Positions 24,935-48,701 of a stretch of 64,000 nt of DNA are shown piece by piece. Both the position numbers and the translations under genes were made by a program. The DNA comes from Bacillota bacterium (GTDB taxonomy: Bacteria; Bacillota; Sulfobacillia; JBFMBV01). The notes under the pieces are model-generated. The model worked only from the letters and a program-made list of their open reading frames with translations, searched no databases and was not told where the DNA came from. How positions within the stretch are numbered: position 1 is the stretch's first letter; every line of letters starts with the position of its first letter. The stretch covers positions 13,761-77,760 of the forward strand of contig JBFMBV010000002.1 of assembly GCA_040755005.1 (NCBI GenBank), given 5' to 3'.

Positions 24935-24948
<14 letters not shown>
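23119..24948 (+). CDS. dnaG: DNA primase
   Basis: CHC2 zinc finger ([13 protein letters not shown]...[11 protein letters not shown]), Toprim region ([10 protein letters not shown]...AFDADAAG), C-terminal DnaB-binding domain. Confidence 0.9.
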
Positions 24949-28597: not shown

Positions 28598-28655
28598 TTG
28601 AGTCCCACTTGAGGAGCATCTACGGAACCGCCGGCAACGGCGGTTTTTGCCTGAC
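28598..28655 (+). repeat. Degenerate direct repeat of the tRNA-Asn 3' end plus its terminator (att-like junction scar)
   Basis: GGGATTGTAGTTTGAGTCCCACTTGAGGAGCATCTACGGAACCGCCGGCAACGGCGGTTTTTGCC is about 80% identical to 27200-27262 (GGGGTTGCAGGTTCGAGTCCTGCTCGAGGAGCCAAGCACAAACCGCCGGTGACGGCGGTTTTTGTG). Confidence 0.6.
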
Positions 28656-28775
28656 CACTGGGAACCTGCACGGGTGCTGCTTCCATTTCTCGTGAAGCAC
28701 TGGAAAAGGAACTGTGGGGGCAAGACGCGAATTTCCTCGAAAGAAGTCGTTAACAGGAGTGGGCGGGAACCCCAG

Positions 28776-31700: not shown

Positions 31701-32315
31701 TACGGAGACGACAATGCGGAGGAGCGTGAGCGGCTCCGGCAACGAGTCAAGGATCTGAAGGTCCGACGGGCCGAACGGCTGCAAGAGCTGGAGCTCATGC
31801 TGAAGCTGACCGCCAACCTCCCTGATCTCCTGACGGAGGCCGTGGTCGCCCCTGTCCCAGTGGCTATGGTGGAGAGCGACGCAGAGGCACCGTCCAGGGG
31901 CTTCCCGATGCGACGCGACGACGAGGTCGAGGCCATTGCCATGGACGTGGCCATGCGCTACGAGCGCGGACGCGGGTGGACACCTGTAGATGTCAGCCGG
32001 GACGGAGATCACTATGACGTCCGGTCGGAAGGGCCTAGTGGAGAGAAGCGGTTCATCGAGGTCAAGGGCCGCGCCCAGTCGGGCGCCATCGTCCTGACCG
32101 GTCCCGAGGTGGACAAGCTTCGCCAGCTCGGCGAGCGGGCCTGGTTGTACGTCGTTACCTTCTGCAAAGGCGAGCGTCCCAGGCTACGCATCATCCAGGA
32201 CCCCATCGCCAATCTCAGCCCAGAGATGCTCTATCGGCAGATCCAGTACATCGTCACAGAAGACGATTGGGCACAGAAGTGCGAGGAAGTATCGGAAGGA
32301 GGCCAACCCCTATGA
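28776..32315 (+). CDS. SNF2/DEAH-family helicase with C-terminal DUF3883-like domain (defence-associated)
   Basis: Walker A LADDTGAGKT, DEAH box (VVVDEAHKL), LLFLTATPHRG, helicase-C motifs (ATDAAGEGINLQ...WNPNRLEQRMGRIHRYGQ). C-terminal DUF3883-type segment (DVSRDGDHYDVRS...RFIEVKGRAQSG). Start chosen at ATG 28776; the track ORF begins at 28647. Confidence 0.8.
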   Translation: MTQDGNNLAPGDVVSGLEPSELVEIQRIVPFGGKTLVEGVGLQSRRLLKRPLTAEELAALVRVRGQQRTFDGDARLFLLGAEAERIRIAYQFDPLFAVNSSIVDPLPHQVEAVYRYLLPLPRIRFLLADDTGAGKTIMTGLLIKELLFRGVLQKVLIITPGGLTKQWKEEELQERFGLYARLVNRASFDAEPGQFARYEEGIFVTSIDFLGRNEGCLKAASETQWDLVVVDEAHKLSAYEYGTKLEESERYKAVKALAGKSDHLLFLTATPHRGRKDTFRRLLLLLDPDLFQKDEHVTDRVREQAVPYGTSEAEDFEDERPISRARNRFFLRRLKEEMVDWDNHALFKDRHTKTTGYDLTPEEKTLYDQVTSYVRSQRKQAQAQKNRNVELTLMVMQRRLASSLYAITRTLENRLQVLNEVLAILRDPSRSEADKRKLLRGTPDPNEPRSITEYYELSEEERERVDRRISRQVLTSNPDKVQEERDEVERLFHLADSLKHHEEAKFAQLLAVLDSSDVIRAEDEKLLIFTEHRDTMDSLAKRLEEKGYTVATIHGGMDVDSRKEAQRQFRAHAKIMVATDAAGEGINLQFCRHLINWDIPWNPNRLEQRMGRIHRYGQTDDVWVYNLVAQNTREGSVLQKVLSKMDVMREQMGTDRVYDVIDEWLEDVPLLRLIESAIDDADESASARETDAALSAASNERAARLIALQKKTSLASRLSLRSARELRDASDERRLQPLFVERFFERAWTACGGTIRQDDHFPVWHIGSTPTALLELAQERRQPLSDDFDTPFVFDKQLVSVASKVRTPERTKLIGPGHPLFDTLIEWAIREARQAFAKGATLVDPNIATPQRLWLVRSTIEDGRRQYRQDRRKLPAHERLAVIVQDHMGLRTTSPSYMLNCVAPDAPLPVPDVAARSAEEIQAWAHEQITERQLDQVKTLREEECSLRQEYLNTAFTGLILQLQGELNDLQQAELYGDDNAEERERLRQRVKDLKVRRAERLQELELMLKLTANLPDLLTEAVVAPVPVAMVESDAEAPSRGFPMRRDDEVEAIAMDVAMRYERGRGWTPVDVSRDGDHYDVRSEGPSGEKRFIEVKGRAQSGAIVLTGPEVDKLRQLGERAWLYVVTFCKGERPRLRIIQDPIANLSPEMLYRQIQYIVTEDDWAQKCEEVSEGGQPL

Positions 32316-34237
32316 AGATCAAGTCGGTACGCATTCGTAACTTCCGCTCCGTGAGAGGGCAGCTCGTTGAGCTTGGCGACTACACATGCTTTGTGGGAGC
32401 TAATGGTTCAGGGAAGTCTAACGTGCTTCATGCTCTTAACGTTTTCTTCGGAACAGACACCCCTGGCCTCGACACCCACGAACTAGAAGAGGAGGATTTT
32501 CACAACAAGAACACAGGAGAGCCTGTAGAGATAACAGTTACGTTTTGTGACCTCTCGCCGCAAGCCAAAGAGGAACTAAAGCACTATGTGCGCCACGACC
32601 AACTGGTAGTCTCAGCTGAAGCGGGTTTTGACGCTGATACCCGCAAGGCTGCGGTCAAGCAGTATGGACGCAGGATGGTGATCAGGGAGTTTGCGCGCTT
32701 CTTTGAGGCTGAGAAGAAGACAGGCACGAAGGTCTCGGAACTCAAGGAGATATATGCGGACATACAAAAGAGATACTCACAACTGCCTGTTACAGGAACA
32801 AGGGAAGCCATGATCACGGCGCTTCGGTCATATGAGGAGAGTCACCAGGAGGAGTGTGAGGAGCTTCCGAGCAGCGACCAGTTCTATGGAGTAGCCAAAG
32901 GAACAAACCACCTCGAGAAGTACATCCAATGGGTCTATCTCCCAGCAGTCAAAGACGCATCGAGCGAACAGGCTGAAGCCAAAACCACGGCCCTCGGAAA
33001 GCTCTTGGCACGCACCGTTCGATCCAAGGTCAACTTCAAGGAGTCGATTGACGCTATCCGTGGAGAAACACGAGAAAAGTACGAAAAGCTTCTGGTCGAT
33101 AGTCAGGAGGAGCTGGCAGAAGTATCTCAAGCTCTAAGAGATCGCTTTGTGCTGTGGGCACACCAGGACGCGACTCTCCGGCTGGAATGGCAACAGGATC
33201 CTGAGAAGGCAGTACGTGTGGACGAACCATTCGCTCAAGCCATTCTCGGTGAGGCAGGCTTTGAGGGGGAACTCACCCGTTTCGGACACGGACTTCAACG
33301 GTCCTTTCTCCTGGCGCTTCTGCAAGAACTCTCCGGTAGTAACATCGAGGCGGGTCCGCGGCTGATTCTCGCGTGTGAGGAACCTGAGCTTTACCAGCAC
33401 CCCCCTCAGGCAAGGCACCTATACAACGTGCTGCTGAGACTGAGCGAACAGAACTCTCAGATTCTTATTGCGACCCATAGCCCCTACTTCGTGTCCGGTG
33501 AAGGCTTTGAGAGTGTACGAATGGTTCGCAAGTCTAACGGGGCGTCTTCGATCACGAGGGCGACACATGACGAAGTATCGAAGAGAATCGCGAAGGTTCG
33601 AGGAGAGCAGCCTATAAGGGCCAGCGGCCAACTGGCCAAGATCCATCAGGCGCTCCAGCCGGGACTTAGCGAGATGTTCTTCGCCTCCCGAGTCATATTT
33701 GTTGAAGGTCTTGAAGACATTGCCTATATAACAACATACTTACATCTCCTAGGCTTGTGGGACGAGTACAGGAGGCTCGGTTGCCACTTGATCTCGACTG
33801 GTGGGAAGAACGAAGTGCTTCTGTCCTTGGCGGCTGTGAAGTGCCTCCAGATCCCGGCTTTCGTTGTCTTCGATTCAGACGATGACAAACCGGACAAGAA
33901 CGGCAGCAAGCAGAAACATCGAAAGGACAACTCTGCAATCCTAAGTCTATGTGACGTTGACAGTCTGCAAGTGTCTCCGTCCGATACATTCTGGGGAGAC
34001 TCCGCGGTCATGTGGTCCTCTGATATTGGGCAGGTGGTTGCGCAGGAGATTGGAGCCGAGGACTGGGACAGGTATCGCTCTGAGGCTGACGCGAAGTATG
34101 GGCACGTAGGGAACCTCCGCAAGAACATGCTACACATCGCATCGAGCCTGCAAATAGCTTGGGAAGCTGGGAAAGAGTCGGACTCGCTAAGGAAGGTCTG
34201 CAACAAGATCATGGAGTTTGCTCAGAAGAATGGATAG
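32312..34237 (+). CDS. OLD-family ATP-dependent nuclease (N-terminal ABC-type ATPase + C-terminal Toprim)
   Basis: Walker A GANGSGKSN. Toprim motifs (IFVEGLEDIAYI ... FVVFDSDDD). Noticeably AT-richer than its neighbours. ATG 32312 overlaps the helicase stop; RBS GGAAGGAGG. Confidence 0.8.
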   Translation: MKIKSVRIRNFRSVRGQLVELGDYTCFVGANGSGKSNVLHALNVFFGTDTPGLDTHELEEEDFHNKNTGEPVEITVTFCDLSPQAKEELKHYVRHDQLVVSAEAGFDADTRKAAVKQYGRRMVIREFARFFEAEKKTGTKVSELKEIYADIQKRYSQLPVTGTREAMITALRSYEESHQEECEELPSSDQFYGVAKGTNHLEKYIQWVYLPAVKDASSEQAEAKTTALGKLLARTVRSKVNFKESIDAIRGETREKYEKLLVDSQEELAEVSQALRDRFVLWAHQDATLRLEWQQDPEKAVRVDEPFAQAILGEAGFEGELTRFGHGLQRSFLLALLQELSGSNIEAGPRLILACEEPELYQHPPQARHLYNVLLRLSEQNSQILIATHSPYFVSGEGFESVRMVRKSNGASSITRATHDEVSKRIAKVRGEQPIRASGQLAKIHQALQPGLSEMFFASRVIFVEGLEDIAYITTYLHLLGLWDEYRRLGCHLISTGGKNEVLLSLAAVKCLQIPAFVVFDSDDDKPDKNGSKQKHRKDNSAILSLCDVDSLQVSPSDTFWGDSAVMWSSDIGQVVAQEIGAEDWDRYRSEADAKYGHVGNLRKNMLHIASSLQIAWEAGKESDSLRKVCNKIMEFAQKNG

Positions 34238-37166
34238 CAGCAGCACTATCGGTTGGTGTCCGCGTTTGATCGAGGTGGCACTCCCCATCCGTGAAATCTC
34301 GGCAGAGAGCGTGCGGGACAAATCGCTGCGGCACGGCCATATCTCCACGCTTCACCTCTGGTGGGCGCGTCGACCGCTGGCTGCGTCACGAGCGGTTGTG
34401 TTCGCGTCGCTCGTGCCCGATCCCGACGACCCGCGTTGTCCGGCCGACTTCAGGGCAGCGGTGGAGCGTCATCTCAAGACGCACGTGCCGGCGGAACTGA
34501 GATACTACCTTCGCGGCCGCCACAGTCACCGTGATGAGGACCCGTACCGGCCCTACGATGGCATGCCGGACACGCTGCGGAACCGCCTCCTCATGTTCAT
34601 CGCCAAGTGGTCGCCGGAGTCCCTGACGTTTGAGGCCGGCAAGCGGAAGAACGCGCCCGTGCCGAAAGAGCTCCTGGACGACCGCTCCCTCGTGAAATGG
34701 GAGACCTCCGATCCTGAGAACGCCCAAGGCCAGGAGATCCTCCGCATCGCCCGCCAGCTTGTGAAGGCCGCCCACAGGGGCGACGTCCCGAGGGTGCTCG
34801 ATCCCTTTGCCGGCGGCGGGGCGATTCCGCTGGAGGCCGGGAGGCTCGGCTGTCAGGCCATTGCCAACGACTACAACCCGGTCGCGTATCTCATCCTTAG
34901 GGCGACCTGCGAGTTTCCGCAGAGGTACGGTAAGCCAGGCAAGAGGACGGTGGTCGTGGAGGAGTTTGGCAAGAAGGCCGAACGCGAAATCCAGGTTCAA
35001 AACGTCCTCGTCCACGACTTCGCACAGTGGGCGAACTGGATTCTCGAGCGGGCTCGCCAGAGGATTGGGCATCTGTATCCTCCCGGCATGGACGGCAGGC
35101 CGGTTGTGGGCTACCTCTGGGCCCGCACTGCGCCGTGCTCGAACCCCACCTGCCGTGGCGAGATTCCCCTGTTACGGAGCCTTCTGGTCTGCAACAAGAA
35201 GGGGAAGCAAGTCGCGCTGACGATGGATGTGGACAGCAAGCGGAAGACGGTTCGATTCGGGATCGCGGAAGGCAACGCCATCAGGATGACTGACGGCACC
35301 ATGCAGAGTCGCGGAAACGTTTTGTGCCCGTACTGCGGACAGGTGACCCCTGTCGCCGACCTACGGACCGCTGGACGCGCGGGCCGCATGAGCGAGCAGA
35401 TGGTATGTGTCGTGGTGGAAGGAAAGGGTGGAAAGGACTACCGGGAGGTGGAGTACACAGACCTCACGGGGATTGCCTGCGCAGCGAAGATCGAGGTTGA
35501 GTGTCCCGGGGAGAGAATTCCTGAGAACCAGTGGAATGTGAAGACCTGGCTGTATGGAATGAAGACCTGGGGTTCCCTCTTCAACCCCCGCCAGCTCGTG
35601 GCCATGCAGACGTTTGTCTCCTGTCTCCACGAGGCGCTAGGAGGGATGAAGAGAGAGATCGCCGACGACGAGTACCGGAAGGCGGTTGGAGTCTGTCTGG
35701 GGCTTTGGCTGAACCGGATTGCCCAGCGAAGTTCGAATGTAGGAATTTGGGACACAACCCGAGAGACCTTTGCTCATCCCTTTGGCCGCCAGGCTATCCC
35801 TATGACGTGGGACTATCCCGAGGCGAACCCTTTTTCAGAGACAACAGGGGGTGCGGAAGGCGGACTGGACTGGATGAAGCGGGTGATCCTGCATGAGTCA
35901 GGGAATTCCCTACCTGCCTACGTGACACGCAGTGATGGCGCGGCCCTTCCCTTCAGGGAAGCATCTTGCGACTTGGTCGTCACCGATCCACCCTATTTTG
36001 ACGCCATCGCTTACGGTGACCTCTCCGATTACTTCTACGTTTGGCTCAAGCGCGGCCTTGGCGATGTCATCCCTGAGGCCCTGATCACGCCGCTCACGCC
36101 CAAGGCTGATGAGGCGACTGCACTCAAGCATCGTCATTCCGGCGACGGAGAGAAGGCGGATGCTCACTTCAAGTCAAAGTTGGCGGCGGTACTAGCGGAG
36201 GCACACCGGATCTTAAGGCCTGATGGCATCGTCTCGATCATGTTTGCACACCAGTCCACAGAGGCGTGGACGGCCCTGGTTTCGGCGATCTTCGAGGCTG
36301 GGTTGACGGTGCACGCGACGTGGCCGATTGACACGGAGCTCACTACGGCCTTGAAGGCCAGCATGTCGGCTCTGTCGTCGTCGGTAACCGTTACCTGCCG
36401 TCCGCGCGCTGTAGCAGGTGCTATATCCTCCAAGGCGGTCCGCAGTGAGATCGAGGAGGTAGTGGGCCGTTCCGTAAAGCGCTTCTGGTCCTACGGCTTT
36501 CGCGGCGCAGACCTCATCGTTGCGTGCTATGGACCCGCTGTGGGGGTCTTTGGGAAATACGAGCGAGTGGAGAAGGCAGATGGCACCCCTGTCGGCATCC
36601 CCGAACTCCTGGTGCTTGCCAAGCAGGCCGCCCGTGACGCGATCGCCGGGGATTTCCGCGGAGACAACTTCTCAACCCTCTACTACGTCTGGGCGAACCT
36701 CTACGGGGCGGCGGAGCAGGCTTGGGATGACGCCCGGCTGGTCGTGCAGATCGGAGGAGACGAGGACAACGCCATGGAGGTTGCCCGCGGGCATGGGATC
36801 TTTGTGGTGGACGGTCCGAAATGCCGCCTTGCGCTCCTAGAGGACCGCGCCAATCGCCGAGGACTTGGCATGGATCAGAACCCGCCACACATTGACGCGC
36901 TACATCGCAGCATGCTCCTCTGGAAGAAGGAAAAGCGTAAGGATCTAGTCGAGTATCTCCGTGAGCGCGACCTCTTGGAGGATGGCCCGTTCTGGAAGCT
37001 GGCGCAGGCCCTGTTCGAGGTCCTTCCCCGCGATCTGGAGGACTGGAAGCTGGTCAGCGCTTTGCTCGGCGAGCGCCAGACTTTGCGTACGGAGGGCAAG
37101 CGTAGCGCGTACAGGGATGAGCAACAGGAGCTGTCCTTCGACGAGGGAGGCGGTGAGCGAACATGA
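34230..37166 (+). CDS. DUF1156-type DNA methyltransferase (N6-adenine/N4-cytosine class, DPPY motif)
   Basis: DUF1156-like N-terminus (RLIEVALPIREISAESVRDKSLRHGHISTLHLWWARRP). SAM motif I VLDPFAGGGAIPLEA. Catalytic motif IV DLVVTDPPY. ATG 34230 overlaps the OLD stop (ATGGATAG). Confidence 0.75.
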   Translation: MDSSSTIGWCPRLIEVALPIREISAESVRDKSLRHGHISTLHLWWARRPLAASRAVVFASLVPDPDDPRCPADFRAAVERHLKTHVPAELRYYLRGRHSHRDEDPYRPYDGMPDTLRNRLLMFIAKWSPESLTFEAGKRKNAPVPKELLDDRSLVKWETSDPENAQGQEILRIARQLVKAAHRGDVPRVLDPFAGGGAIPLEAGRLGCQAIANDYNPVAYLILRATCEFPQRYGKPGKRTVVVEEFGKKAEREIQVQNVLVHDFAQWANWILERARQRIGHLYPPGMDGRPVVGYLWARTAPCSNPTCRGEIPLLRSLLVCNKKGKQVALTMDVDSKRKTVRFGIAEGNAIRMTDGTMQSRGNVLCPYCGQVTPVADLRTAGRAGRMSEQMVCVVVEGKGGKDYREVEYTDLTGIACAAKIEVECPGERIPENQWNVKTWLYGMKTWGSLFNPRQLVAMQTFVSCLHEALGGMKREIADDEYRKAVGVCLGLWLNRIAQRSSNVGIWDTTRETFAHPFGRQAIPMTWDYPEANPFSETTGGAEGGLDWMKRVILHESGNSLPAYVTRSDGAALPFREASCDLVVTDPPYFDAIAYGDLSDYFYVWLKRGLGDVIPEALITPLTPKADEATALKHRHSGDGEKADAHFKSKLAAVLAEAHRILRPDGIVSIMFAHQSTEAWTALVSAIFEAGLTVHATWPIDTELTTALKASMSALSSSVTVTCRPRAVAGAISSKAVRSEIEEVVGRSVKRFWSYGFRGADLIVACYGPAVGVFGKYERVEKADGTPVGIPELLVLAKQAARDAIAGDFRGDNFSTLYYVWANLYGAAEQAWDDARLVVQIGGDEDNAMEVARGHGIFVVDGPKCRLALLEDRANRRGLGMDQNPPHIDALHRSMLLWKKEKRKDLVEYLRERDLLEDGPFWKLAQALFEVLPRDLEDWKLVSALLGERQTLRTEGKRSAYRDEQQELSFDEGGGERT

Positions 37167-40000
37167 GTGACACTCTCAAACCCTGGTATGCAGTTGCGAC
37201 ACCTCACGAGGACATCCGCGAAGGACGGCTCGCAGAGGCCATCTTTGCGGCAAACGTCTGGGCGGTCGTCCAGGGTACGGCGCCCGAGATCTACCTCGAC
37301 CCTGAGGAGTTTTTCCGTAAGACCTACCTCACCACCGGACTAACCACGGTGCTGAACCGCGTTGCGGGCGCGCTCCGACGCAACGGCGAGGTTGGAGACC
37401 GCATCATCAGCCTCCAGACAGCCTTCGGCGGTGGGAAGACGCACACGCTGGTGGCCCTGTGGCATCTAGCGAAGTATGCCGACCGCTTGGCGGGCTCGCC
37501 TCACTCAGATGCCCTTCGGAGAGCCATCGGCGGCCGATTCCCGGAGAAGGTGAAGGGCGTCGCCGTCTTCACCAACCAGACCTGCGATGCGACCCAGGGA
37601 CGTAGGGTCGCAGATGGCGTTCACCTGCGCACGTTGTGGGGAGAGTTAGCCTACCAGCTCGGCGGGAAGGAGCTCTACGAACGCGTCCGTGCCAATGACG
37701 AAAGCCAGCGCGTGCCTCAAGGGCTCTTCTTCGAGATCCTGCAGGCCGCCGCACCCTGCCTGATCTTGCTGGACGAGCTTGCCGACTACTGCGTTGGCGC
37801 GGCGGCAGTGCCGGTAGGTGACACGAGCCTGGCAGACCAGACCGTGTCCTTCATCCAGCAGCTGACCGAGTCCGTCCAGCAGGTGCCGGGCGTAGTGGTG
37901 GTCGCCACCCTGCCGGCGAGCAAGCACGAGGTCGCCCAAAGCGAGAAGGGCCAGGAGGCCTTCGTGACACTGGAGAAGCGCTTCCAGCGTCTCGGAGCCG
38001 ACGTCAAGCCGGTGGCGGATGTGGAAATCTACGAGGTTGTCCGGGCCCGCCTCTTCGAATCCATCGCACCGGACACTGCTCCGGACTATCCTAAGAAGGT
38101 TGCCCAGGCGTACCAGAGTATGTACGCGGCGCACTCGGGTGAGGTACCCCCCGAGGCCGCCAAAAACACGTACCGCGAGCAGCTCGAGCGCGCCTATCCG
38201 TTCCATCCCCTGCTCATCGACGCACTCTACACGCGCTGGGGCAGCCACCCCGATTTCCAACGGACGCGGGGTGTATTGCGCCTGCTGGCGAGCATCGTAG
38301 GCGACCTTTGGAAGCGCCGGCAGGGAAGCACCGAGACCCAACACCTGATTCAGCCGTGCCATGTCCGCTGGTCTGTCGATGCGCTGCAGGCTGCGCTCAC
38401 ACGACTCTGGGGACCCGCCTATCAATCCGTTGCTGCTGCCGACGTCATCGGGGAGCGGTCCAATGCCGGCATCTTCGACGAAGAACGTGGTGGCGACTAC
38501 CGAAGCGAGTCCATCGGCAAGGGGCTGGGGTCTGCGATCATCCTCGGCTCATTCGGCGGCCAAGGTGGCCGCAGCGGGTTCAGCGCTAGAGATCTGAAGC
38601 TGGCATGCTCCCGGCAGGGTTTAAACTGGAGTTACACGGACGGGGCTCTGCTGGAGCTGGAGAACCGCTGTTTCTACCTCCACACGGTGACGTCCGGAAG
38701 CCTCGGCAAGCGCTACTGGTACGGCACAAAACCGACCCTCAACAAGCTGGTCGTCCAGTACCGTCAGCAGAGCGCCAAGGAGGACTTCGGCGAGGAGATA
38801 CTGGAGGACCTCCGGGCTGATTCCCAGAAGAGCCCCATGGCTGGTGCGACGTGGCGGGTGGTCGTCAACCCCGCAGAAGACCTGCCAGAGCAGAAGTCTC
38901 TCACGCTACTGATCCTTCCGCCGTCCCTGGCCTGGGACGAGAACGGCGGGGCGAAGGACGTGGTCCAGGCACGCGTACAGGCGATCAGCACCAGGTGCGG
39001 CGGAAGGGACCGCCTGTATCGGAACACGCTCCTGTTTCTGGTTGGGACCACTCGCGGGCTCACTAAGCTGCGGCAGGCCTATCGGGAGCAGGCAGCGCTG
39101 GAAGGCGTGCGTGCGGACTACTGGGAACAGCTCGATGAGGAGCAGCGCGAGGAGCTCAAAAAACGACTGGATGCGGCGCGCAAAGCCGCCCTGGAAGCGC
39201 TGGGCCCCGCCTACACCGTTGCCCTCCGAGTGCGCGGGCAAGAAGTAGAGCCATGCGTGCTCTCGGACGCGCGGCGAACCTTCCCAGAACACCTTGGTTA
39301 TGTGTGGACGACGCTCGTCGAGGACGAGGAGTGGATTCTCCGTCGTGTTGGGTCGGTGACGCTGGAGAGCACGGGCCTCATCCCGAAGGAAGGCGGCCTT
39401 CGCTTGAAGGATGCCGTCGAGGCCTTCCTGCGCTTCACGGACAAGCCCATGGTCGCGACCAAGGAGGCGGTGACCACCGGGCTCGCCCAGGCTTGCCTGG
39501 ACGGACTGGTTGGCATCGGCAGAGGTGGAAGCCTGTCGACACTCCTGACCCGCCATTGCAGGCAGTCGGTGTCGCTCGACCCCAACGAAGACGGTGTGTG
39601 GATCATCCCTCCGTTCACACCGGAGCCGACGATGGTTCCTGGGGCTGAGGGAACCGCCGGAGTTGGGATCAATGTCGGGGGACCGGGCGGCCCAGGTGGA
39701 ACAGGCTCCAGCACGGGCAGTGGGGAAGGTGCGGCAACGACCGCCACGGGTAAGCCGGGAATCGAGGGCACGGTGCGTCGGTTCGTCGTCCGCGGCGAGG
39801 TTCCCGTGGAGAGCTGGGGTGAGCTCTTTCGCTGCTTCGTTGGGCCTGCTGCACGGATGAACCTGAAGAAGTTGCAGCTCGGCGTGCAGTTCGAGATGGT
39901 GCTCCCTGAGGAGCGGGTGCTGAGCGAGACCGATCACACGCTCAAGACGATCAAAGAGGCCGCCCGCCAGCTGGGGCTCACCTTCGAGGTGGGGGAGTAA
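37163..40000 (+). CDS. DUF499-family ATPase (BrxC/PglY-like) of a BREX-related, methylation-associated defence system
   Basis: Walker A LQTAFGGGKTHTL and Walker B LILLDELADY in a DUF499-like context; about 945 aa; ATGA overlap with the methyltransferase stop; RBS GAGGGAGG. Confidence 0.75.
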   Translation: MSDTLKPWYAVATPHEDIREGRLAEAIFAANVWAVVQGTAPEIYLDPEEFFRKTYLTTGLTTVLNRVAGALRRNGEVGDRIISLQTAFGGGKTHTLVALWHLAKYADRLAGSPHSDALRRAIGGRFPEKVKGVAVFTNQTCDATQGRRVADGVHLRTLWGELAYQLGGKELYERVRANDESQRVPQGLFFEILQAAAPCLILLDELADYCVGAAAVPVGDTSLADQTVSFIQQLTESVQQVPGVVVVATLPASKHEVAQSEKGQEAFVTLEKRFQRLGADVKPVADVEIYEVVRARLFESIAPDTAPDYPKKVAQAYQSMYAAHSGEVPPEAAKNTYREQLERAYPFHPLLIDALYTRWGSHPDFQRTRGVLRLLASIVGDLWKRRQGSTETQHLIQPCHVRWSVDALQAALTRLWGPAYQSVAAADVIGERSNAGIFDEERGGDYRSESIGKGLGSAIILGSFGGQGGRSGFSARDLKLACSRQGLNWSYTDGALLELENRCFYLHTVTSGSLGKRYWYGTKPTLNKLVVQYRQQSAKEDFGEEILEDLRADSQKSPMAGATWRVVVNPAEDLPEQKSLTLLILPPSLAWDENGGAKDVVQARVQAISTRCGGRDRLYRNTLLFLVGTTRGLTKLRQAYREQAALEGVRADYWEQLDEEQREELKKRLDAARKAALEALGPAYTVALRVRGQEVEPCVLSDARRTFPEHLGYVWTTLVEDEEWILRRVGSVTLESTGLIPKEGGLRLKDAVEAFLRFTDKPMVATKEAVTTGLAQACLDGLVGIGRGGSLSTLLTRHCRQSVSLDPNEDGVWIIPPFTPEPTMVPGAEGTAGVGINVGGPGGPGGTGSSTGSGEGAATTATGKPGIEGTVRRFVVRGEVPVESWGELFRCFVGPAARMNLKKLQLGVQFEMVLPEERVLSETDHTLKTIKEAARQLGLTFEVGE

Positions 40001-40252: not shown

Positions 40253-43200
40253 ATGGCGCAGCAAACCAGACCACGCGTCACCCAGCGGGCGTACTCACTC
40301 CGGTTGCGGGGGACCACACCGGGCGACACATCATGGCGGGATGCGCTCTGGCAGACCCATGAGGCTGTCAACAAAGGTGCCAAGGCATTCGGTGATTGGC
40401 TGCTTACTTTGCGTGGCGGCCTGGATCACACACTTGCGGCCGCCAAGACCGACGGAGAACGCCGCCAACGACGCATTCTCTTGGCTCTGTCATGGCTGTC
40501 GGTGGAATCAAAACGCGGAGCTCCGGATGACTTCATTATCAGGCACGGCGGACACGACCGAGGTAAAGCTGTAACCGGGGCACTTGAGGAAATCCTAGTG
40601 CGTCGGGGTGTGGACCAGAGTGAGCTAGCTGAGTGGAAGCGCGACTGCTCCCCGTCCTTGCACGCAGCTATTCGCGAGGATGCCGTTTGGGTGAATCGGA
40701 GCAGGGCATTTGATGGTGCGGTCAACTCAATAGGTTGCTCACTCACGCGCGAGGAGGCGTGGGACATGCTGGAACGCTTCTTCGGAAGCCGTGAAGCCTA
40801 TCTGGCTCCAGCGAAAGGGTCCGAAGATGAGTCTTCCGACACAGGGCAAGAGGAGAAAGCAAAGGACCTCGTCCAGAAGGCAGGGCAATGGCTCAGCAGC
40901 CGGTTCGGCACCGGCAAAGGAGCGGACTTCTCCCGCATGGCCGAGGTCTATCAAGAGATCGCGAGTTGGGCTGGCGCACACTCACCGGACAAGCCGGGCA
41001 CGCATGCCATTGCCAGCCTTGCGACCGCCCTCAGCGAGTTCACTCCTGCATCAGACAACCTACAGGGCGTGCTTGGTCTGATCAGCGGTCCAGGATACAA
41101 GAGCGCGACGCGCAATCTTCTCACTCAGATCGCCGCCAAGACCACCGTTACTCAACAAGATTTTACGAAACTGAACGCAACGGCGACCGCGGATAAAGGA
41201 AAATGCATGACGAACACCGGATCGAAGGGGCAACGAGCATACTCCGACACCATCCTCAAGGACGTGGAGTCGGCTTGTGGGTTCACCTACCTGCAGGACG
41301 GAGGGCCTGCTAGACACCCGGAGTTTGCAGTCATGCTTGACCACGCAGCTCGCCGCGTTTCCTTGGCCCACACGTGGATCAAGCGGGCTGAGGCGGAACG
41401 TCGCCGGTTTGAGGAAGAAGCGAAGCGTATGGCCAATGTCCCATCTCCTGCTAGGGAGTGGCTGGACTCGTTCTGCTCGGAACGTTCGGGAACGTCAGGT
41501 GCTTTGGAACCCTACCGTATCCGGCGGCGGGCGGTGGACGGGTGGAAGGAAGTGGTCACCGCATGGAGTAGGAGTTCATGTAGTACCGGCGCCGACCGGA
41601 TCGCCGCCGCTCGGGCGTTGCAGGACGCTCCAGAGATCGACAAGTTCGGCGACATTCAGCTATTCGAGGCCCTCGCTGAAGACGACGCCGTGTGCGTTTG
41701 GCACAAGGATGGCGATGCCGCGAAACCTCCCGACCTTCAGCCGCTGCTTGACTACGTTTTTGGCGCTGAAGCGGAGTTCAAGAAACGGCACTTCAAGGTG
41801 CCGGCGTACCGCCACCCCGATGCGCTTTTGCATCCGATCTTCTGCGATTTTGGGAAGTCCCGCTGGGACATCTGCTTCGACGTCCAGAAGAACGTGCAAA
41901 CGCCCTTTCCGCGGGCGCTTTGCCTGACGCTTTGGACCGGGAGCGGGATGGTAGCAGTTCGGTTGTGCTGGCAGTCCAAGAGGCTTGCATGTGATTTGGC
42001 CCTTGGAAACAACGCGAGGAATGCAGGTGCTTCCGCGGTCACCCGCGCGGACAGATTGGGACGAGCTGCCTCAAATGTGACAAAGAATGATGAGGTAAAT
42101 ATCGCGGGGCTCTTTGAACAAGCAGACTGGAATGGCCGGTTGCAGGCTCCAAGACAGCAGTTGGAAGCCATCGCCGCACGTGTGGCCAAACACGGCTGGG
42201 ATGATAAGGCCGTACAGATGCAATATCGTATCCAATGGTTGGTGTCTTTCTCTGCCAAGCTTCAACCGCAGGGCCCGTGGCTCACCTATGGAATGGCAAA
42301 TAACCTGAAGCTAGACCAGAAGAACGGTGATATTGTTATCGCGCCGCCTAACACCAAGAATGAATGGCGTGGGCTGGCTTACCCGTTCTGGCATCCTGAT
42401 AATCAGGAAGGCCGTAAGGGATTGGCCAAGCACTGCCTCTCCCGTTTGCCCGGTCTTCGCGTGCTTTCTGTCGACCTTGGTCACCGTTATGCTGCGGCGT
42501 GCGCGGTGTGGGAAGCGGTAAACACCGAGCAGATCAAGGTAGCGTGCCAGGCCGCCGGACATGATGAGCCGAAGGAGAGCGATCTCTACCTGCATCTCAA
42601 GAGAAAGGCGACGAAGCAGAAGAGGGGCGAAAACGTCGAGGTCGAGAGAACCACTATCTATCGCCGCATCGGCGCGGACACATTGCCGGACGGTACGCAG
42701 CATCCCGCCTCGTGGGCGCGCCTGGACCGCCAGTTCCTCATCAGGCTCCAGGGCGAGGAAAAGGGAGCTCGCGCGGCATTAAACGAGGAGATATGGGCGG
42801 TTCATCAACTGGAGGCTGAACTGGGCAGGACCGTGCCAATTATCGACCGACTGGTCAGATGGGGTCAGTCCGGCAAGCAAGAAACGAGACTCGATGCGCT
42901 ACGTAATCTGGGGTGGGCACCGGCAAACGAGGTTCAAGGCTCTGACGAGATGGACGAAGGCGAAGTCCGTAAGCCATCGCGCTCCGTTGACGAACTGATG
43001 TCCTCCGCCGTCCGGACCATGCGCCTCGCGCTCAAGCGCCATGGCGACCGGGCGCGAATCGCCTTTGCCATGACGGCAGCCTATAAACCTTTGCCCGGCG
43101 ACCGCAGATACTACTTCACCGAGGCGAGAGATGCTTCGGCGAACGAAGATGCTAATGCGCGGAACGGTACGCATATCGAGTCTATCCAAGATGCTCTGCT

Positions 43201-44659
43201 CCTCTGGTATGGATTGGCATCCTCCCGTGGATGGCGGGACGACGCGGCAAAGCGACTGTGGGATGACCATATCACCGGATTGTCCGGATACAAGGCTCCG
43301 GAAGAAATCGGTGAGGATGTCTCCGGTGTAGCGCGCAAGACGAAGCAAAGAGAGAATCGAGAGAAACTCCATCATGTGGCGGAGGCCCTGGTCAAGGATG
43401 CAAGGCTTCGAGAGGCTCTCCACGACGCCTGGAAGAAGCGATGGGAAGCGGACGACGAGCGGTGCAAAAGACAGCTTCGCTGGTTCAAGGACTGGATTCT
43501 TCCCCGCGGCAAAGCCGCGAGTGATCCGACCATCCGCAAGGTCGGCGGACTCTCCCTTCGCCGGCTTGCCACGCTGACCGAGTTTCGCCGCAAAGTTCAA
43601 GTGGGATTTTTCACCCGCCTTCAACCGGATGGCATAAGGGCTGAAGCCAAAGAGCAGTTCGGGCAGAGCGCCTTGGACGCTCTGGAACATCTACGCGAGC
43701 AGCGCGTCAAGCAACTTGCCAGTCGCATAGCCGAGGCGGCGCTCGGTATCGGACGGATGAGGCGGCCCATGGGAGGCAAGGACCCCAAACGGCCAAGTGT
43801 CCGTGTAGACGCGCCTTGCCACGCCATCGTCATCGAAGACCTTACCCACTACCGGCCGGAGGAAACTCGTACCCGGCGGGAAAACCGCCAACTCATGACG
43901 TGGTCGTCCTCGAAGGTCAAGACGTACCTGGCCGAAGCCTGCCAACTCCACGGCCTGCACCTCCGCGAAGTCTCGGCGAGCTACACGTCGCGCCAGGACT
44001 CCCGCACAGGAGCTCCCGGCATCCGCTGTCAGGATGTGCCTGTCAATGAGTTCATGCGGTTGCCGTTCTGGAGGAAGCAGGTTAAGCAAGCGGAGGCGAA
44101 GCAGGCCGAGAACAAGGGCGACGCGCGTGAGCGGCTCCTCTGTGACCTGAACTCAATGTGGAAAGACAAGGCTGTAGCCGATTGGCAGAAGGCCGGGGTT
44201 ATCCGTGTTCCACTAAGAGGAGGCGAGATATTTGTTTCGGCCAGCCGGGACTCCCAGGGAGTGAAGAGCCTTCAAGCCGACCTGAACGCCGCTGCCAACA
44301 TCGGCCTGCGGGGGCTTACTGACCCGGACTGGCCGGGAAAGTGGTGGTACGTGCCATGCGAGCCGGCCAGCTTCAAGCCCACACCTGATAAGGTAAAAGG
44401 TAGTGCCGCGATCAACCTGGACATGCCACTCAAAGACGCATCGGTCGGCAGCGGGGACGTAACCAGGAAGAAAGCCGGGAAGGCCAAGTCACAGTCCAAA
44501 GAGGTTGTTAACCTCTGGCGAGATGTCTCATCACGGGTGATTTCTGCGGAGGGCGTGGCGTGGGAAGTCTATTCCGCCTATCAGAATCAAGTGCAGGCGC
44601 GAGTGGTCGATATCCTGCACAGATCCGCGTGCTCAAACAATGACCGGGAGAAACAATAG
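40253..44659 (+). CDS. cas12b: Cas12b (C2c1) type V-B effector nuclease, unusually long (1468 aa)
   Basis: N-terminus alignable by eye to AacCas12b (RAYSLRLRG..SWRDALWQTHEAVNKGAKAFGDWLLTLRGG). RuvC-I VLSVDLGHRYAAACAV; RuvC-II IVIEDLTHY...YTSRQDSRTGAPGIRC; RuvC-III QADLNAAANIGLRGL. Followed by cas4/1, cas2 and an array. Confidence 0.85.
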   Translation: MAQQTRPRVTQRAYSLRLRGTTPGDTSWRDALWQTHEAVNKGAKAFGDWLLTLRGGLDHTLAAAKTDGERRQRRILLALSWLSVESKRGAPDDFIIRHGGHDRGKAVTGALEEILVRRGVDQSELAEWKRDCSPSLHAAIREDAVWVNRSRAFDGAVNSIGCSLTREEAWDMLERFFGSREAYLAPAKGSEDESSDTGQEEKAKDLVQKAGQWLSSRFGTGKGADFSRMAEVYQEIASWAGAHSPDKPGTHAIASLATALSEFTPASDNLQGVLGLISGPGYKSATRNLLTQIAAKTTVTQQDFTKLNATATADKGKCMTNTGSKGQRAYSDTILKDVESACGFTYLQDGGPARHPEFAVMLDHAARRVSLAHTWIKRAEAERRRFEEEAKRMANVPSPAREWLDSFCSERSGTSGALEPYRIRRRAVDGWKEVVTAWSRSSCSTGADRIAAARALQDAPEIDKFGDIQLFEALAEDDAVCVWHKDGDAAKPPDLQPLLDYVFGAEAEFKKRHFKVPAYRHPDALLHPIFCDFGKSRWDICFDVQKNVQTPFPRALCLTLWTGSGMVAVRLCWQSKRLACDLALGNNARNAGASAVTRADRLGRAASNVTKNDEVNIAGLFEQADWNGRLQAPRQQLEAIAARVAKHGWDDKAVQMQYRIQWLVSFSAKLQPQGPWLTYGMANNLKLDQKNGDIVIAPPNTKNEWRGLAYPFWHPDNQEGRKGLAKHCLSRLPGLRVLSVDLGHRYAAACAVWEAVNTEQIKVACQAAGHDEPKESDLYLHLKRKATKQKRGENVEVERTTIYRRIGADTLPDGTQHPASWARLDRQFLIRLQGEEKGARAALNEEIWAVHQLEAELGRTVPIIDRLVRWGQSGKQETRLDALRNLGWAPANEVQGSDEMDEGEVRKPSRSVDELMSSAVRTMRLALKRHGDRARIAFAMTAAYKPLPGDRRYYFTEARDASANEDANARNGTHIESIQDALLLWYGLASSRGWRDDAAKRLWDDHITGLSGYKAPEEIGEDVSGVARKTKQRENREKLHHVAEALVKDARLREALHDAWKKRWEADDERCKRQLRWFKDWILPRGKAASDPTIRKVGGLSLRRLATLTEFRRKVQVGFFTRLQPDGIRAEAKEQFGQSALDALEHLREQRVKQLASRIAEAALGIGRMRRPMGGKDPKRPSVRVDAPCHAIVIEDLTHYRPEETRTRRENRQLMTWSSSKVKTYLAEACQLHGLHLREVSASYTSRQDSRTGAPGIRCQDVPVNEFMRLPFWRKQVKQAEAKQAENKGDARERLLCDLNSMWKDKAVADWQKAGVIRVPLRGGEIFVSASRDSQGVKSLQADLNAAANIGLRGLTDPDWPGKWWYVPCEPASFKPTPDKVKGSAAINLDMPLKDASVGSGDVTRKKAGKAKSQSKEVVNLWRDVSSRVISAEGVAWEVYSAYQNQVQARVVDILHRSACSNNDREKQ

Positions 44660-44689: not shown

Positions 44690-46408
44690 ATGGATGAGAG
44701 CCTTTGGCCAGCCCGGAATGTGGCCGAACATGCATATTGCCCGCGGCTCTTCTATTACATGCAGGTCGAGGGTGTCTTTGTTCCGAGCAGCGACACGGAA
44801 AAGGGGGTCGCTGTCCATCGACGCGTGGACAAGCCCAGCGCAGCTCAGGGGAAGGCGGATGAAAGCGAGGCGGACCCCGATCGGCCGAAAACAGTTCGGA
44901 GTCTGGCCTTAACAAGTGAGTCGCTCGGTCTAACCGCGACGTTGGACTTGGCGGAGATCTCGGGTCAAGTCGCAGTGCCCGTCGAATATCGCAAAGGTCG
45001 TCCCAAGCGCGTTTCATTGGATCCGCCTCCCGACGATCCGGGCGAAGCAGAGGAAGCTCCACTTTCGCACACAGAAGCGTGGCCCACGGACCGTGTTCAA
45101 GTGGGCCTCCAAGCCATTCTTCTTGAGGGTGCCGGGTATACGGTTAGTGAAGCGGTCATCTACTACGCCGAGGAGAAACATCGTTTCAGGATTCCCGTCG
45201 ATGATGCTCTCAAGGTCGAAGCGCTGAGGACCTTGGAAAGCGCGAAACAATGCGCCGAAGGCTCACGGCCTCTCCCGCTGCTCAATGATCCGCGCTGTCC
45301 GCGGTGTTCGCTTCAGCCGATATGCTTGCCGGACGAGGTCAATCACCAGCGGGCACAATCTTCAAGTGACGAACGTACACCGAGAAAGATCTGGCCGCCG
45401 CGCGATGACGGTATTCATGTAGTAGCCCAGCAGGATGGCGTGAAGGTCGGCGTTCGTGGCATGGAGTTGAAGGTCACGGACAAAAGTGGCGCAGTAGTCA
45501 AAACCATGCCGCTCGCCAACCTCGAAAGCCTTTCCCTGCTTGGTTCGGTGCAAATCACCACCCAGGCGATTCGTGCCCTTGCCGACATGAACACTCCTAT
45601 CGCGTTTCTTTCGCCGGCGGGACGGCTAGTGGCCATGATCGATCCGCTCGATTCAGTCAGCGCCGAGGTTCGAAGGTCACAGGTTCGTAAACTCGACCGC
45701 ATGGAGGTCTGCCTCGAACTTGCACGTGCCCTCGTGTCGGCCAAGATCATGAACCAGAGAACACTCCTCCTCCGCAATCACAGCTCGTTGCCACCTGGCG
45801 TAGCTGCTGATCTGGTGAAGGAGGCTCAGAATGCGGCGCAGTCGGATTCGGTAGATTCGGTGCGCGGGCATGAGGGTCAGGCGGCGGCCATCTACTTCGG
45901 GCATTTTGCTGGAATGTTCAAGGGCCCTCTATCGTTGGAGTTTGATGCCAATGGCAGGAAACGCAGACCTCCGCCCGACCCCATCAACTCCTGTCTGTCG
46001 CTTGCGTACTCGATGTTGACTCACGAGTGCGTGGCGGCGTTACGCCTCGCAAGACTGGAGCCATCTATCGGCGGATTTCATGTATCGAAGCCAGGGCGTC
46101 CCGCGCTCGCGCTCGATCTCATGGAACCGTTTCGACCCCTGATCGCGGATTCCGTCGCGATCACATGCTTTAACCGGGGTGAGTTGACCGAGGGACATTT
46201 TCTTCGCACTGCCTCCGGCTGTTCGCTCACCGACGCTGGCAGAAGGGGCTTCTTCCATGCTCTTGGCAGAAGAATGGATACTGAGGTCACCCATCCGGTC
46301 TTCGAGTATCGTTTGAGCTACCGGCGCATGATCGTCTTGCACGCGCGGATGATTGCGGCCTGGCTCACGGGAGATATTCCTTCTCTGGCGTTCCTGAACA
46401 CACGCTGA
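44690..46408 (+). CDS. cas4-cas1: Cas4-Cas1 fusion protein
   Basis: Cas4 part: EHAYCPRLFYY plus C-terminal Cys cluster (CPRCSLQPIC). Cas1 part: conserved blocks (LSLLGSVQITTQAIRAL; RRPPPDPINSCLSLAYSML; DLMEPFRPLIADS). Confidence 0.9.
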   Translation: MDESLWPARNVAEHAYCPRLFYYMQVEGVFVPSSDTEKGVAVHRRVDKPSAAQGKADESEADPDRPKTVRSLALTSESLGLTATLDLAEISGQVAVPVEYRKGRPKRVSLDPPPDDPGEAEEAPLSHTEAWPTDRVQVGLQAILLEGAGYTVSEAVIYYAEEKHRFRIPVDDALKVEALRTLESAKQCAEGSRPLPLLNDPRCPRCSLQPICLPDEVNHQRAQSSSDERTPRKIWPPRDDGIHVVAQQDGVKVGVRGMELKVTDKSGAVVKTMPLANLESLSLLGSVQITTQAIRALADMNTPIAFLSPAGRLVAMIDPLDSVSAEVRRSQVRKLDRMEVCLELARALVSAKIMNQRTLLLRNHSSLPPGVAADLVKEAQNAAQSDSVDSVRGHEGQAAAIYFGHFAGMFKGPLSLEFDANGRKRRPPPDPINSCLSLAYSMLTHECVAALRLARLEPSIGGFHVSKPGRPALALDLMEPFRPLIADSVAITCFNRGELTEGHFLRTASGCSLTDAGRRGFFHALGRRMDTEVTHPVFEYRLSYRRMIVLHARMIAAWLTGDIPSLAFLNTR

Positions 46409-46424
46409 CTTGCCGGAGGCTATT

Positions 46425-46715
46425 ATGCGTCGATGCTACCTGGTTTGTTACGACATCAGAGAACCGAAACGATTGCGGCGTGTCCACAAGGTGCTTAAAG
46501 GGTACGGCGAAGCCTGGCAGTTTTCCGTCTTCTTTTGTGTGCTCAAAGACATTGACCGCGTGCGGTTGCAGACCGATCTCGAGGAGCAGATGAACCAGAA
46601 GGTAGATCAGGCCATGATTCTGGACCTTGGCCCTAACGAGAAGGAGGCCCGCGAAGCGGCCACGGTTATAGGCCAACCCCTTCCCGGCCAGGACAGCGGG
46701 ATCGTTGTTGTTTGA
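46425..46715 (+). CDS. cas2: Cas2
   Basis: About 97 aa, MRRCYLVCYDI.. N-terminus typical of Cas2; the track begins the ORF at TTG 46410. Confidence 0.85.
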   Translation: MRRCYLVCYDIREPKRLRRVHKVLKGYGEAWQFSVFFCVLKDIDRVRLQTDLEEQMNQKVDQAMILDLGPNEKEAREAATVIGQPLPGQDSGIVVV

Positions 46716-46811
46716 CTTTCGGGGTGCCAGAAGGTATGATTTCCCTGAGGCCTCTACAGGAGGCGAGAGTACCACGGCACGTGTCTTCCCCTTCAATGGG
46801 CTTGGCACCGT

Positions 46812-46836
46812 GGAGTCGATCAGTTTTGTTCCGACG
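46812..46836 (+). ncRNA. Candidate tracrRNA anti-repeat within the cas2-array leader (transcript bounds unknown)
   Basis: GGAGTCGATCAGTTTTGTTCCGACG matches the reverse complement of the repeat (CCGTCGATCAGATCCGTTTCGATG) at 17/25 positions, including a perfect 9-mer GTCGATCAG. Followed by a T-run. Adjacent CAATGGGCTTGGCACCGTGG loosely resembles the Aac tracrRNA segment CCAATGGCCACTTTCCAGGTGGCA. Confidence 0.3.
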
Positions 46837-47033
46837 AAGGAGCGGACTCCTCGACAGCAGCCGCGAGCGCGGAGGTGGTGCAGGGGGGGCCAGGGGGTGC
46901 TCGAACCTGTTGGGTTTCCTGAGGCTATGAACAGCGCTCAGACCACCTGCGTAGGCTCATTGTCGGCAGCACTCGGTCACGCTCGCATGGCAGCCAGCAA
47001 ACGCTGTGTTAGCAAGGGTTTGCAGGGACGGCG

Positions 47034-48701
47034 GCCACCGACATCGAAACGGATCTGATCGACGGACACACCGACCGCCGCGGTGCCGGCTCTACGGACC
47101 TAGGCCACCGACATCGAAACGGATCTGATCGACGGACACCTGCAGGGGGAGAGTTCACGATGCAGTTCCTCCGCCACCGACATCGAAACGGATCTGATCG
47201 ACGGACACAGGGCCAGGTCGCCCAGTACATCAGACGTTTTACGCCACCGACATCGAAACGGATCTGATCGACGGACACGCCGCGCAATTCCACCAGGTAC
47301 ACCTCTTCCAACACGCCACCGACATCGAAACGGATCTGATCGACGGACACGTTGCGAGCGGCCGAATGAAAACCATGTCGTCCACGCCACCGACATCGAA
47401 ACGGATCTGATCGACGGACACCGTCACCCCCCCTACACCGCGAATGTCACATCCCAGCCACCGACATCGAAACGGATCTGATCGACGGACACGAGTAGGA
47501 CCCCCCGGGGCGAGACGTAGGTTAGGCCACCGACATCGAAACGGATCTGATCGACGGACACCTCCCCCAACAGTCTGCAAAAAAAACGCGCTGTGCACGG
47601 CCACCGACATCGAAACGGATCTGATCGACGGACACTATCAAGCTCGCCATAGGTGACTGTGAGACACTAGCCACCGACATCGAAACGGATCTGATCGACG
47701 GACACCGCAGGAGGCGGGCTGCGCGCAGGCTGTTCGCGGCAGCCACCGACATCGAAACGGATCTGATCGACGGACACTGGTATGTGATACCATTAGAAGC
47801 GCAGCATACAAAGCCACCGACATCGAAACGGATCTGATCGACGGACACTCACGCCCCTGTCCCGCGCAGGTCACACCCATAGGCCACCGACATCGAAACG
47901 GATCTGATCGACGGACACCCACGCCCCAGGCCAAGCGCGCGGCGATCCTCAGGCCACCGACATCGAAACGGATCTGATCGACGGACACCGCAAACCCTCC
48001 TCCACCAACTCCAGGCTTCTTGGCCACCGCCATCGAAACGGATCTGATCGACGGACACTTACTGCGGTGGTCAGGGCCGCGAGACTGCCCACTGCCACCG
48101 ACATCGAAACGGATCTGATCGACGGACACTCTTATGGTCTCGTCAGCAGGTACGTCCCAAGCCGCCACCGACATCGAAACGGATCTGATCGACGGACACA
48201 TGCAGTGGTGCTTGAGGGCCAGCTTGACCTGTTGCCACCGACATCGAAACGGATCTGATCGACGGACACTTGATTGTGACCTCAAGGTAGCGCGGGCCCT
48301 CCTCCGGCCACCGACATCGAAAAGGGATCTGATCGACGGACACATCTTTACCGACCCGCCCTACGGGCACAACAGCAAGCCACCGACATCGAAACGGATC
48401 TGATCGACGGACACAGCTACTCAGGCAACGCCTTCCGCGGCCACCTGCGCGCCACCGACATCGAAACGGATCTGATCGACGGACACACACGGGGTGTGTT
48501 CAGGTGGGCTGGTGTAGTCGGCGCCACCGACATCGAAACGGATCTGATCGACGGACACTTGACTGTGACCTCAAGGTAGCGCGGGCCCTCCTCCGGCCAC
48601 CGACATCGAAACGGATCTGATCGACGGACACCATCGGTGCCAGCACGAAGCGGCGTACGTCTACTGCCACCGACATCGAAACGGATCTGATCGACGGACA
48701 C
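47034..48701 (+). CRISPR. CRISPR array, 24 repeats of 36 nt (GCCACCGACATCGAAACGGATCTGATCGACGGACAC), 23 spacers of 34-37 nt
   Basis: Regular ~70-nt periodicity read directly. Repeat ends in ...GACAC like the V-B repeat 3' handle, implying + strand transcription with the leader at the cas2 side. Repeats 15 (48033, A>C) and 19 (48307, 37 nt) are variant. Confidence 0.95.

Follow-up and report, generated by a model that had tools for sequence, protein, structure and literature searches.

The closest described relatives of the system considered here belong to a Cas12b1 clade of large proteins (~1,500 aa) that Altae-Tran et al. (PNAS 2023, PMC10691335) described, noting a "distinct adaptation module" for it, predicting that its extra recognition-lobe (REC) elements enhance guide:target contacts, and reporting 1,888 aa as the largest Cas12b size. 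We studied a cas12b gene and its surroundings in 64,000 nt of a Bacillota bacterium assembly (contig JBFMBV010000002.1, positions 13,761 to 77,760 of the forward strand; this whole stretch is called the window, and positions are counted from its first letter). An initial annotation made from the letters alone had described the 1468-aa product as far longer than characterised Cas12b enzymes. The length proved to be genuine, but the comparison did not hold, considering the 1496 aa of ChCas12b, the ~1,500-aa clade and its still larger extreme. We believe that the protein is, with little room for doubt, the effector of a complete and apparently functional type V-B CRISPR system and a member of the described clade typified by ChCas12b.

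ChCas12b originates from Candidatus Hydrogenedentes and has been solved by cryogenic electron microscopy (cryo-EM) in four states (PDB 9KLN/9KLO/9KLP/9KLQ; Li et al., NAR 2025, PMC12204704). Its domains are the OBD (1-18, 552-716), helical-I (19-551), RuvC (717-857, 1197-1270, 1361-1378), helical-II (858-934, 966-1196), the bridge helix (935-965) and Nuc (1271-1360, 1379-1496). The same report describes it as "significantly longer" than AacCas12b and BthCas12b and as belonging to another clade with the architecture retained; the extras (larger helical-Ia and -Ib, five OBD helices, one RuvC helix with two strands, and several helical-II helices) are added helices and strands inside the same five domains. 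The enzyme relies on a 5'-TTN protospacer-adjacent motif (PAM), its heteroduplex is 24 bp long and its RuvC site (D767/E1220/D1364) works with two metals; the substitutions D767A and E1220A abolish cleavage (PMC12204704). According to its citation in PMC13605374, a study by Wei et al. (Sci Bull 2024;69:3260) engineered ChCas12b for genome editing.

The initial annotation recognised the window protein as a Cas12b homologue, and this identification is confirmed by 1178.5 bits to the NCBIfam Cas12b equivalog NF033949 (cut-off 150; protein residues 32-1456) and by a match to the Pfam family C2c1_RuvC-like (8.6e-30, 104 bits, cut-off 27). The Pfam scan of the 1468-aa protein found no HNH family; taken together with the ChCas12b alignment, it gives a single split RuvC with a D...E...D triad and without HNH, as in Cas12b. 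When the PDB was searched by sequence, residues 10-1458 aligned to residues 7-1476 of 9kln_A (1496 aa) at 1765 bits, and AacCas12b and BthCas12b were matched around the RuvC region only (~1e-25). A homologue search that covered 5.8 billion protein clusters yielded 595 relatives, the best 120 of which were listed; our view of the length distribution across the family is based on these 120 clusters and on the literature. The median length among the listed 120 is 1484 aa, and 111 of them reach at least 1400 aa. One homologue (P0088) is ChCas12b itself (3396 bits to 9kln_A, residues 2-1496). The top match is GenBank MEW6307573.1, 1468 aa and 100% identical, named [quoted passage not shown], where MAG stands for metagenome-assembled genome. 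Homologous open reading frames (ORFs) of 1388-1518 aa are present in 21 loci from GTDB species genomes, which span Thermodesulfobacteriota, Synergistota, Chloroflexota, Thermoleophilia, Hydrogenedentota, Planctomycetota and Nitrospira; the MAGs with ORFs of this size represent at least seven phyla.

The initial annotation itself raised the question whether the length could be an artefact, i.e., an unrecognised frameshift, a read-through or a fusion with a neighbouring ORF. High-GC DNA yields many long spurious ORFs, which calls for general caution; nothing specific points to such an error here. Its alignments with ChCas12b and with over 100 homologues (1400-1560 aa) are collinear from one terminus to the other. 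Its N-terminus, MAQQTRPRVTQRAYSLRLRG, agrees with the N-termini of homologues from other genomes, and the motif TQRAY(T/S)LRL (TQRAYTLRLRG) is common to the homologues in the 21 GTDB loci. GenBank and a Logan assembly each contain an independent call of the identical protein, and a separate cas4/cas1 gene begins 31 nt downstream of cas12b. We consider the length of 1468 aa genuine because of the full-length collinearity with ChCas12b and with homologues of similar size; on the same full-length alignments a frameshift or fusion was rejected, and the chance of any such artefact is vanishingly small.

The three RuvC motifs pointed out in the initial annotation are all present. The motif positions in the protein are 737 for VLSVDLGHRYAAACAV, 1192 for IVIEDLTHY, 1244 for YTSRQDSRTGAPGIRC and 1341 for QADLNAAANIGLRGL, and the catalytic D/E/D is formed by D741, E1195 and D1343 (Table 1). 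The triad is intact and invariant in the 112 full-length relatives of the clade alignment, which answers the concern, voiced at the outset, that the RuvC residues might not be conserved. Seven of the eight PAM-contact residues of ChCas12b are kept: Q217, G230, P289, G290, K292, K334 and S565 correspond to Q208, G221, P280, G281, K283, K325 and S536 here. The fidelity position D496 of ChCas12b has its counterpart in D467. Judging by the conserved contact residues, the PAM of the window enzyme is probably 5'-TTN.

The window protein exceeds AacCas12b by ~340 residues in total. This excess was mapped with a profile of 39 clade members aligned to AacCas12b, and a single-sequence alignment agrees with the result. 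The profile alignment covers AacCas12b residues 18-70, 220-395, 561-593 and 710-1114, with the anchors (profile = AacCas12b) 28=18, 376=220, 549=395, 741=561, 1066=710 and 1472=1114. About 130-146 of the additional residues fall in helical-Ia/Ib, about 26-32 in the OBD and about 170-176 in the span from RuvC-I to the conserved portion of helical-II; the C-terminal ~400 residues with RuvC-II, Nuc and RuvC-III show ~0 net excess (profile 1066-1472 equals AacCas12b 710-1114). This distribution agrees with the cryo-EM description of ChCas12b (PMC12204704), from which the domain limits in Table 1 were transferred by alignment. The initial annotation had expected the surplus in the REC/PI (recognition or PAM-interacting) or Nuc regions; it lies mostly in the REC lobe, and Nuc has no net insertion. 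One of the two stretches offered there as examples, SDEMDEGEV...DELM (897-916), is indeed in an expanded region, at the junction of helical-II and the bridge helix; the other, KRQLRWFKDW... (1072-1092), which reads KRQLRWFKDWILPRGKAASDP at 1072, aligns with AacCas12b and is therefore not an insertion.

AlphaFold2 models were built from a 35-homologue alignment for residues 1-720 (predicted local distance difference test, pLDDT, 78; predicted template-modelling score, pTM, 0.73) and 700-1468 (pLDDT 73, pTM 0.63). For both halves the best Foldseek matches were 9KLN-9KLQ (E 1e-43 to 1e-60; for the best, E about 1e-58 to 1e-60 and query-based template-modelling scores, TMq, of 0.71-0.74), followed by AacCas12b and BthCas12b (TMq 0.37-0.40). 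The fold is equivalent to that of ChCas12b. The only segment that is rare within the clade is the loop 691-711: it is missing from ChCas12b, its columns are occupied in 6% of the 112 relatives, and its pLDDT is low in both models. The protein is otherwise unremarkable in its clade.

It would be tempting to regard the protein as a new V-B subtype, or as a Cas12b whose extra 200-300 residues come from a captured accessory domain, as the initial annotation suggested. In favour of this one can cite the similarity to AacCas12b and BthCas12b, which at the sequence level is limited to the RuvC region (~1e-25), the adaptation module scoring as Cas4g/Cas1g, and the "distinct adaptation module" published for the large clade (PMC10691335). 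However, the excess is split over three regions (helical-Ia/Ib, OBD, RuvC-I/helical-II), with nearly none in the C-terminal 400 residues, and according to cryo-EM the added helices and strands belong to the same five domains (PMC12204704). The clade is already classed as Cas12b1, i.e., V-B (PMC10691335), and the NCBIfam Cas12b equivalog threshold is passed by a wide margin. No Pfam family was found in the excised segments 55-305, 536-732 and 763-1047 (best E 0.05-0.09), nor any beyond C2c1_RuvC-like in the scan of the whole protein; on these scans an accessory domain in the extra residues was rejected. The suggestion of a distinct subtype or inserted domain is thus not borne out, and we give it a slight chance at most. 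The ~340 extra residues are clade-wide helical elaborations without a fused or inserted accessory domain.

The locus around the gene is a complete V-B locus: it contains cas12b, a cas4/cas1 fusion, cas2, a predicted trans-activating CRISPR RNA (tracrRNA) with its promoter, and 24 repeats with 23 spacers. The Cas4-Cas1 fusion and Cas2 beside a CRISPR array are characteristic of type V-B. The sigma-70-like promoter between cas2 and the array (one site found against 0.1 expected in shuffles) ends 8 nt upstream of the predicted tracrRNA, and transcription is predicted to start at ~46747-46749. When compared with nt 5-62 of the ChCas12b single guide RNA (sgRNA) scaffold, which we reconstructed from the primers in PMC12204704, the tracrRNA shows 88% identity; it has homologues of 83-98% identity at the same position in 11 other loci. 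The published ChCas12b fold, comprising stems 1-3, a C:G pair that follows stem 3 and the pair A(-70):U(-55), was imposed on the 12-sequence alignment; 99.5% of the cells were paired and 6 of the 16 pairs had two-sided changes across the 12 loci, values that 0 of 500 shuffles reached, and all slid controls were far lower. The repeat and the anti-repeat covary, ChCas12b having CTGATCAAC with GTTG and the window CTGATCGAC with GTCG. RNAcofold with the repeat gives three stems and a 9-bp repeat:anti-repeat duplex, with the terminal GACAC left free for a second duplex with the complementary GUGUC of the tracrRNA; the topology is thus of the ChCas12b type (stems 1-3 and two repeat:anti-repeat duplexes). 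No Rfam match to the tracrRNA was obtained, the only Rfam match in the window being a tRNA. From homology, promoter, covariation and cofolding, we predict that a tracrRNA with an anti-repeat is encoded in the locus.

Some side observations concern the tracrRNA. It is far more conserved than Cas12b: in eight loci of different phyla (L001, L002, L004, L007, L009, L014, L015 and L021) it is 93-98% identical to that of the window, and Cas12b is only 53-84% identical (best tblastn segment). In three Planctomycetota loci, with Cas12b proteins of 43-47% identity, the conserved tracrRNA core lies ~100-140 nt downstream of cas12b and not after cas2 (L016:9467-9494, L017:2444-2471, L019:9722-9770), which suggests another locus layout in this branch. 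A 117-aa ORF at 46705-47058 (+) overlapping the tracrRNA and leader has no family matches and is a spurious product of high GC; the same applies to a 235-aa ORF at 47638-48345 (-) overlapping the array.

The CRISPR RNA (crRNA) has the sense of the + strand, the repeat preceding the spacer on its 5' side. The repeat ends with the 16 nt TCTGATCGACGGACAC, and this 3' end agrees with the ChCas12b crRNA handle (CCTGATCAACGGACAC) at 14 of 16 positions. Across loci the 3' 15 nt of the repeat are fixed and the 5' 21 nt are variable. Twenty-two of the 24 repeats are identical, the terminal one is intact, and all 23 spacers are distinct except for one near-duplicate pair (18/22). The variant repeats are repeat 15 (48023-48058), with one substitution (GCCACCGCC...), and repeat 19 (48308-48343), which has A for C and an extra G and so measures 37 nt (...GAAAAGGGATC... 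versus the normal ...GAAACGGATC...). Spacers 18 (48270-48307) and 22 (48559-48595) are one nucleotide apart (TTGATTG... versus TTGACTG...); the pair arose either by duplication of a repeat-spacer unit or by two acquisitions from variants of a single target. Spacer 19 (48344-48378; ATCTTTACCGACCCGCCCTACGG...) reads F-T-D-P-P-Y in frame, which we take to resemble motif IV of N6-adenine/N4-cytosine DNA methyltransferases. Its sole database echo is a match of 25 of 26 nt to the methyltransferase gene of Gordonia phage Clown, which is not significant (E = 0.5). No spacer targets the window itself.

Several points weigh against our reading of an apparently functional system of the ChCas12b type. No spacer had a protospacer in cultured phages or plasmids: against 50,697 phage records as well as 72,556 plasmids, the whole array produced nothing but partial matches with E = 0.5; an exact scan of IMG/VR with spacers 18/22, 11 and 19 and one of the JGI metagenomes with spacers 18/22 and 1 found no protospacer. 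The PAM prediction therefore comes entirely from the conserved contact residues, and one of the eight differs (N564 of ChCas12b is K535 here). No promoter-like site was detected upstream of cas12b, and the confidence of the structure models is moderate (pLDDT 73-78). One could accordingly suppose that the locus is a decaying or domesticated remnant whose inactive nuclease serves outside interference; the absence of protospacers in the collections searched and of a promoter consensus upstream of cas12b, as well as the two mutated repeats, would be in line with that. Absent protospacers are nonetheless usual for uncultured hosts, while the catalytic triad and the PAM contacts are intact, the adaptation module is complete, most repeats are identical with the spacers different, and the tracrRNA has a conserved structure and a good promoter. 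A remnant has, in our opinion, only a very slight chance of being the right explanation, and we retain that of an apparently functional V-B system.

The mechanism that we presume for this system follows, step by step, from homology to ChCas12b. [quoted passage not shown] Cas12b would load the dual RNA and read a 5' T-rich PAM, probably TTN, mainly by the helical-Ib loop (P-G-x-K). A long guide:target heteroduplex of about 24 bp would form, and both strands would be cut by the single RuvC site D741/E1195/D1343 through a two-metal mechanism, leaving staggered ends. Cas4/Cas1 and Cas2 would acquire spacers. The extra helical elaborations may have the role known from ChCas12b, where they contact the sgRNA and the longer heteroduplex.

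Table 1. Coordinates of the cas12b gene, its parts and the neighbouring features (window positions, or protein residues where indicated)
Feature	Position	Strand	Remarks
cas12b	40253..44659	+	one ATG-to-stop ORF, 1468 aa
RuvC-I catalytic Asp741 codon	42473..42475	+	= ChCas12b D767, AacCas12b D570
RuvC-II catalytic Glu1195 codon	43835..43837	+	= ChCas12b E1220, AacCas12b E848
RuvC-III catalytic Asp1343 codon	44279..44281	+	= ChCas12b D1364, AacCas12b D977
21-aa loop, residues 691-711 (NGDIVIAPPNTKNEWRGLAYP)	42323..42385	+	inside transferred RuvC-I limits (671-831), near OBD boundary
OBD	residues 1-21, 523-670		transferred from ChCas12b
Helical-I	residues 22-522		transferred from ChCas12b
RuvC	residues 671-831, 1172-1245, 1340-1357		transferred from ChCas12b
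Helical-II	residues 832-909, 941-1171		transferred from ChCas12b
Bridge helix	residues 910-940		transferred from ChCas12b
Nuc	residues 1246-1339, 1358-1468		transferred from ChCas12b
cas4/cas1 fusion	44690..46408	+	572 aa; Pfam Cas_Cas4, Cas_Cas1; NF049935 cas4g_cas1g 632 bits (cut-off 560)
cas2	46410..46715	+	101 aa; Pfam CRISPR_Cas2 3.6e-16; TIGR01573
Sigma-70-like promoter, TTGACT-17 nt-TATGAT	46712..46740	+	10/12 matches
Predicted tracrRNA	46749..46830	+	stems 1-3, GUGUC, anti-repeat GUCGAUCAG, U-rich tail; 3' end approximate; between cas2 and array
CRISPR array	47034..48701	+	36-nt repeat (GCCACCGACATCGAAACGGATCTGATCGACGGACAC) in 24 copies; 23 spacers, 33-38 nt long
HmaA	28647-32315		Hma defence system, 2e-188
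OLD-family ATPase-TOPRIM nuclease gene	32267-34237		insertion separating hmaA from hmaB
HmaB, DUF1156 methylase	34218-37166		4e-139
HmaC, DUF499 ATPase	37163-40000		9e-132

The CRISPR system lies in a stretch of lower GC (0.54-0.64 versus 0.66-0.70), which is a typical defence island. The island measures ~21.5 kb (27158-49000); it starts right after tRNA-Asn(GTT) at 27158-27232, preceded by dnaG, rpoD and a PIG-L deacetylase gene, and ends before a pair of genes for a histidine (sensor) kinase and a sigma-54 activator. Directly upstream of cas12b is an Hma (helicase-methylase-ATPase) system occupying 28647-40000, and a DUF488 / PDC-M19A gene is found in the same stretch. No integrase was found in the island, and a search for attachment sites gave no flanking direct repeat, i.e., no copy of the 3' end of tRNA-Asn of at least 10 nt at the right edge. 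The PADLOC label RT_UG29 / RTasDnaG-like for 23119-24948 was rejected: the ORF has the Pfam domains zinc ribbon, DNAG_N, Toprim and DnaB-binding, a canonical DnaG primase, and the defence label is a false lead because the domain is shared with DnaG. A crude IVYWREL estimate from 26 crude ORFs gives a temperature of ~47 C, too rough to be used for host thermophily.

What does the observation add? The protein is an ordinary intact large-clade Cas12b, already known, deposited and correctly named in GenBank. The finding is real but not new: proteins of this size are the norm in the described ~1,500-residue branch of Cas12b, and the structural basis of the size has been published for a 61%-identical orthologue. 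Little is gained for discovery, as the clade is documented and one member already has structures in four states and a version engineered for editing. In practice the gain is modest: the window supplies a further intact orthologue from a high-GC host (protein, predicted tracrRNA, crRNA handle and probable TTN PAM), which could be screened beside ChCas12b. The only residual novelty would be in orthologue-specific properties for engineering. The 21-aa loop 691-711, the presence of Lys535 where ChCas12b has Asn564 as a PAM contact in the major groove, and the divergence of the repeat in its 5' part might give a PAM preference, temperature optimum or fidelity usefully unlike those of ChCas12b, and hence a distinct editing or diagnostic enzyme, although we regard this as unlikely.

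An assignment to type V-B2 was rejected considering 1468 aa against the ~700-800 aa of the small Cas12b2 effector (PMC10691335). With the classical type V-B effectors AacCas12b (1129 aa) and BthCas12b (1108 aa; PDB 5U30, 5WQE, 5WTI) the protein shares the family model, the domain architecture and the RuvC D/E/D; those systems likewise depend on a tracrRNA and encode Cas2 together with a Cas4/Cas1 fusion. The sequence similarity to them is mainly in the RuvC/Nuc half (~1e-25 with a single sequence, 1e-41 with a profile), and their sgRNA topology is different (PMC12204704).

ChCas12b differs in 39% of residues. The largest indels are one of 21 aa, inserted in the window protein, and one of 19 aa, deleted from it; the ChCas12b segments that the window protein lacks measure 19 aa (following Ch 359), 11 aa (following Ch 574) and 7-8 aa. 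In their 5' two-thirds the two repeats are unrelated, and the host of ChCas12b belongs to Hydrogenedentota, whereas that of the window is a high-GC MAG labelled Bacillota. Otherwise the two proteins are fully collinear at 61% global identity, each ChCas12b domain mapping at 40-89% identity and the bridge helix at 81%, with the same domain order, the same catalytic triad and the same clade-specific elaborations of helical-I, OBD, RuvC-I and helical-II. They share the His next to D741 (H770 in ChCas12b) and the PAM-contact P-G-x-K. The tracrRNA scaffolds are 83-88% identical, with the three stems and two repeat:anti-repeat duplexes alike; the gene order is alike as well, and in the ChCas12b source contig (L020) the tracrRNA likewise lies just upstream of the array. 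By size and by the published description (PMC10691335), we found no difference from the large Cas12b1 clade, in which both the 1468 aa of the protein and the Cas4-Cas1 fusion with Cas2 have their place.

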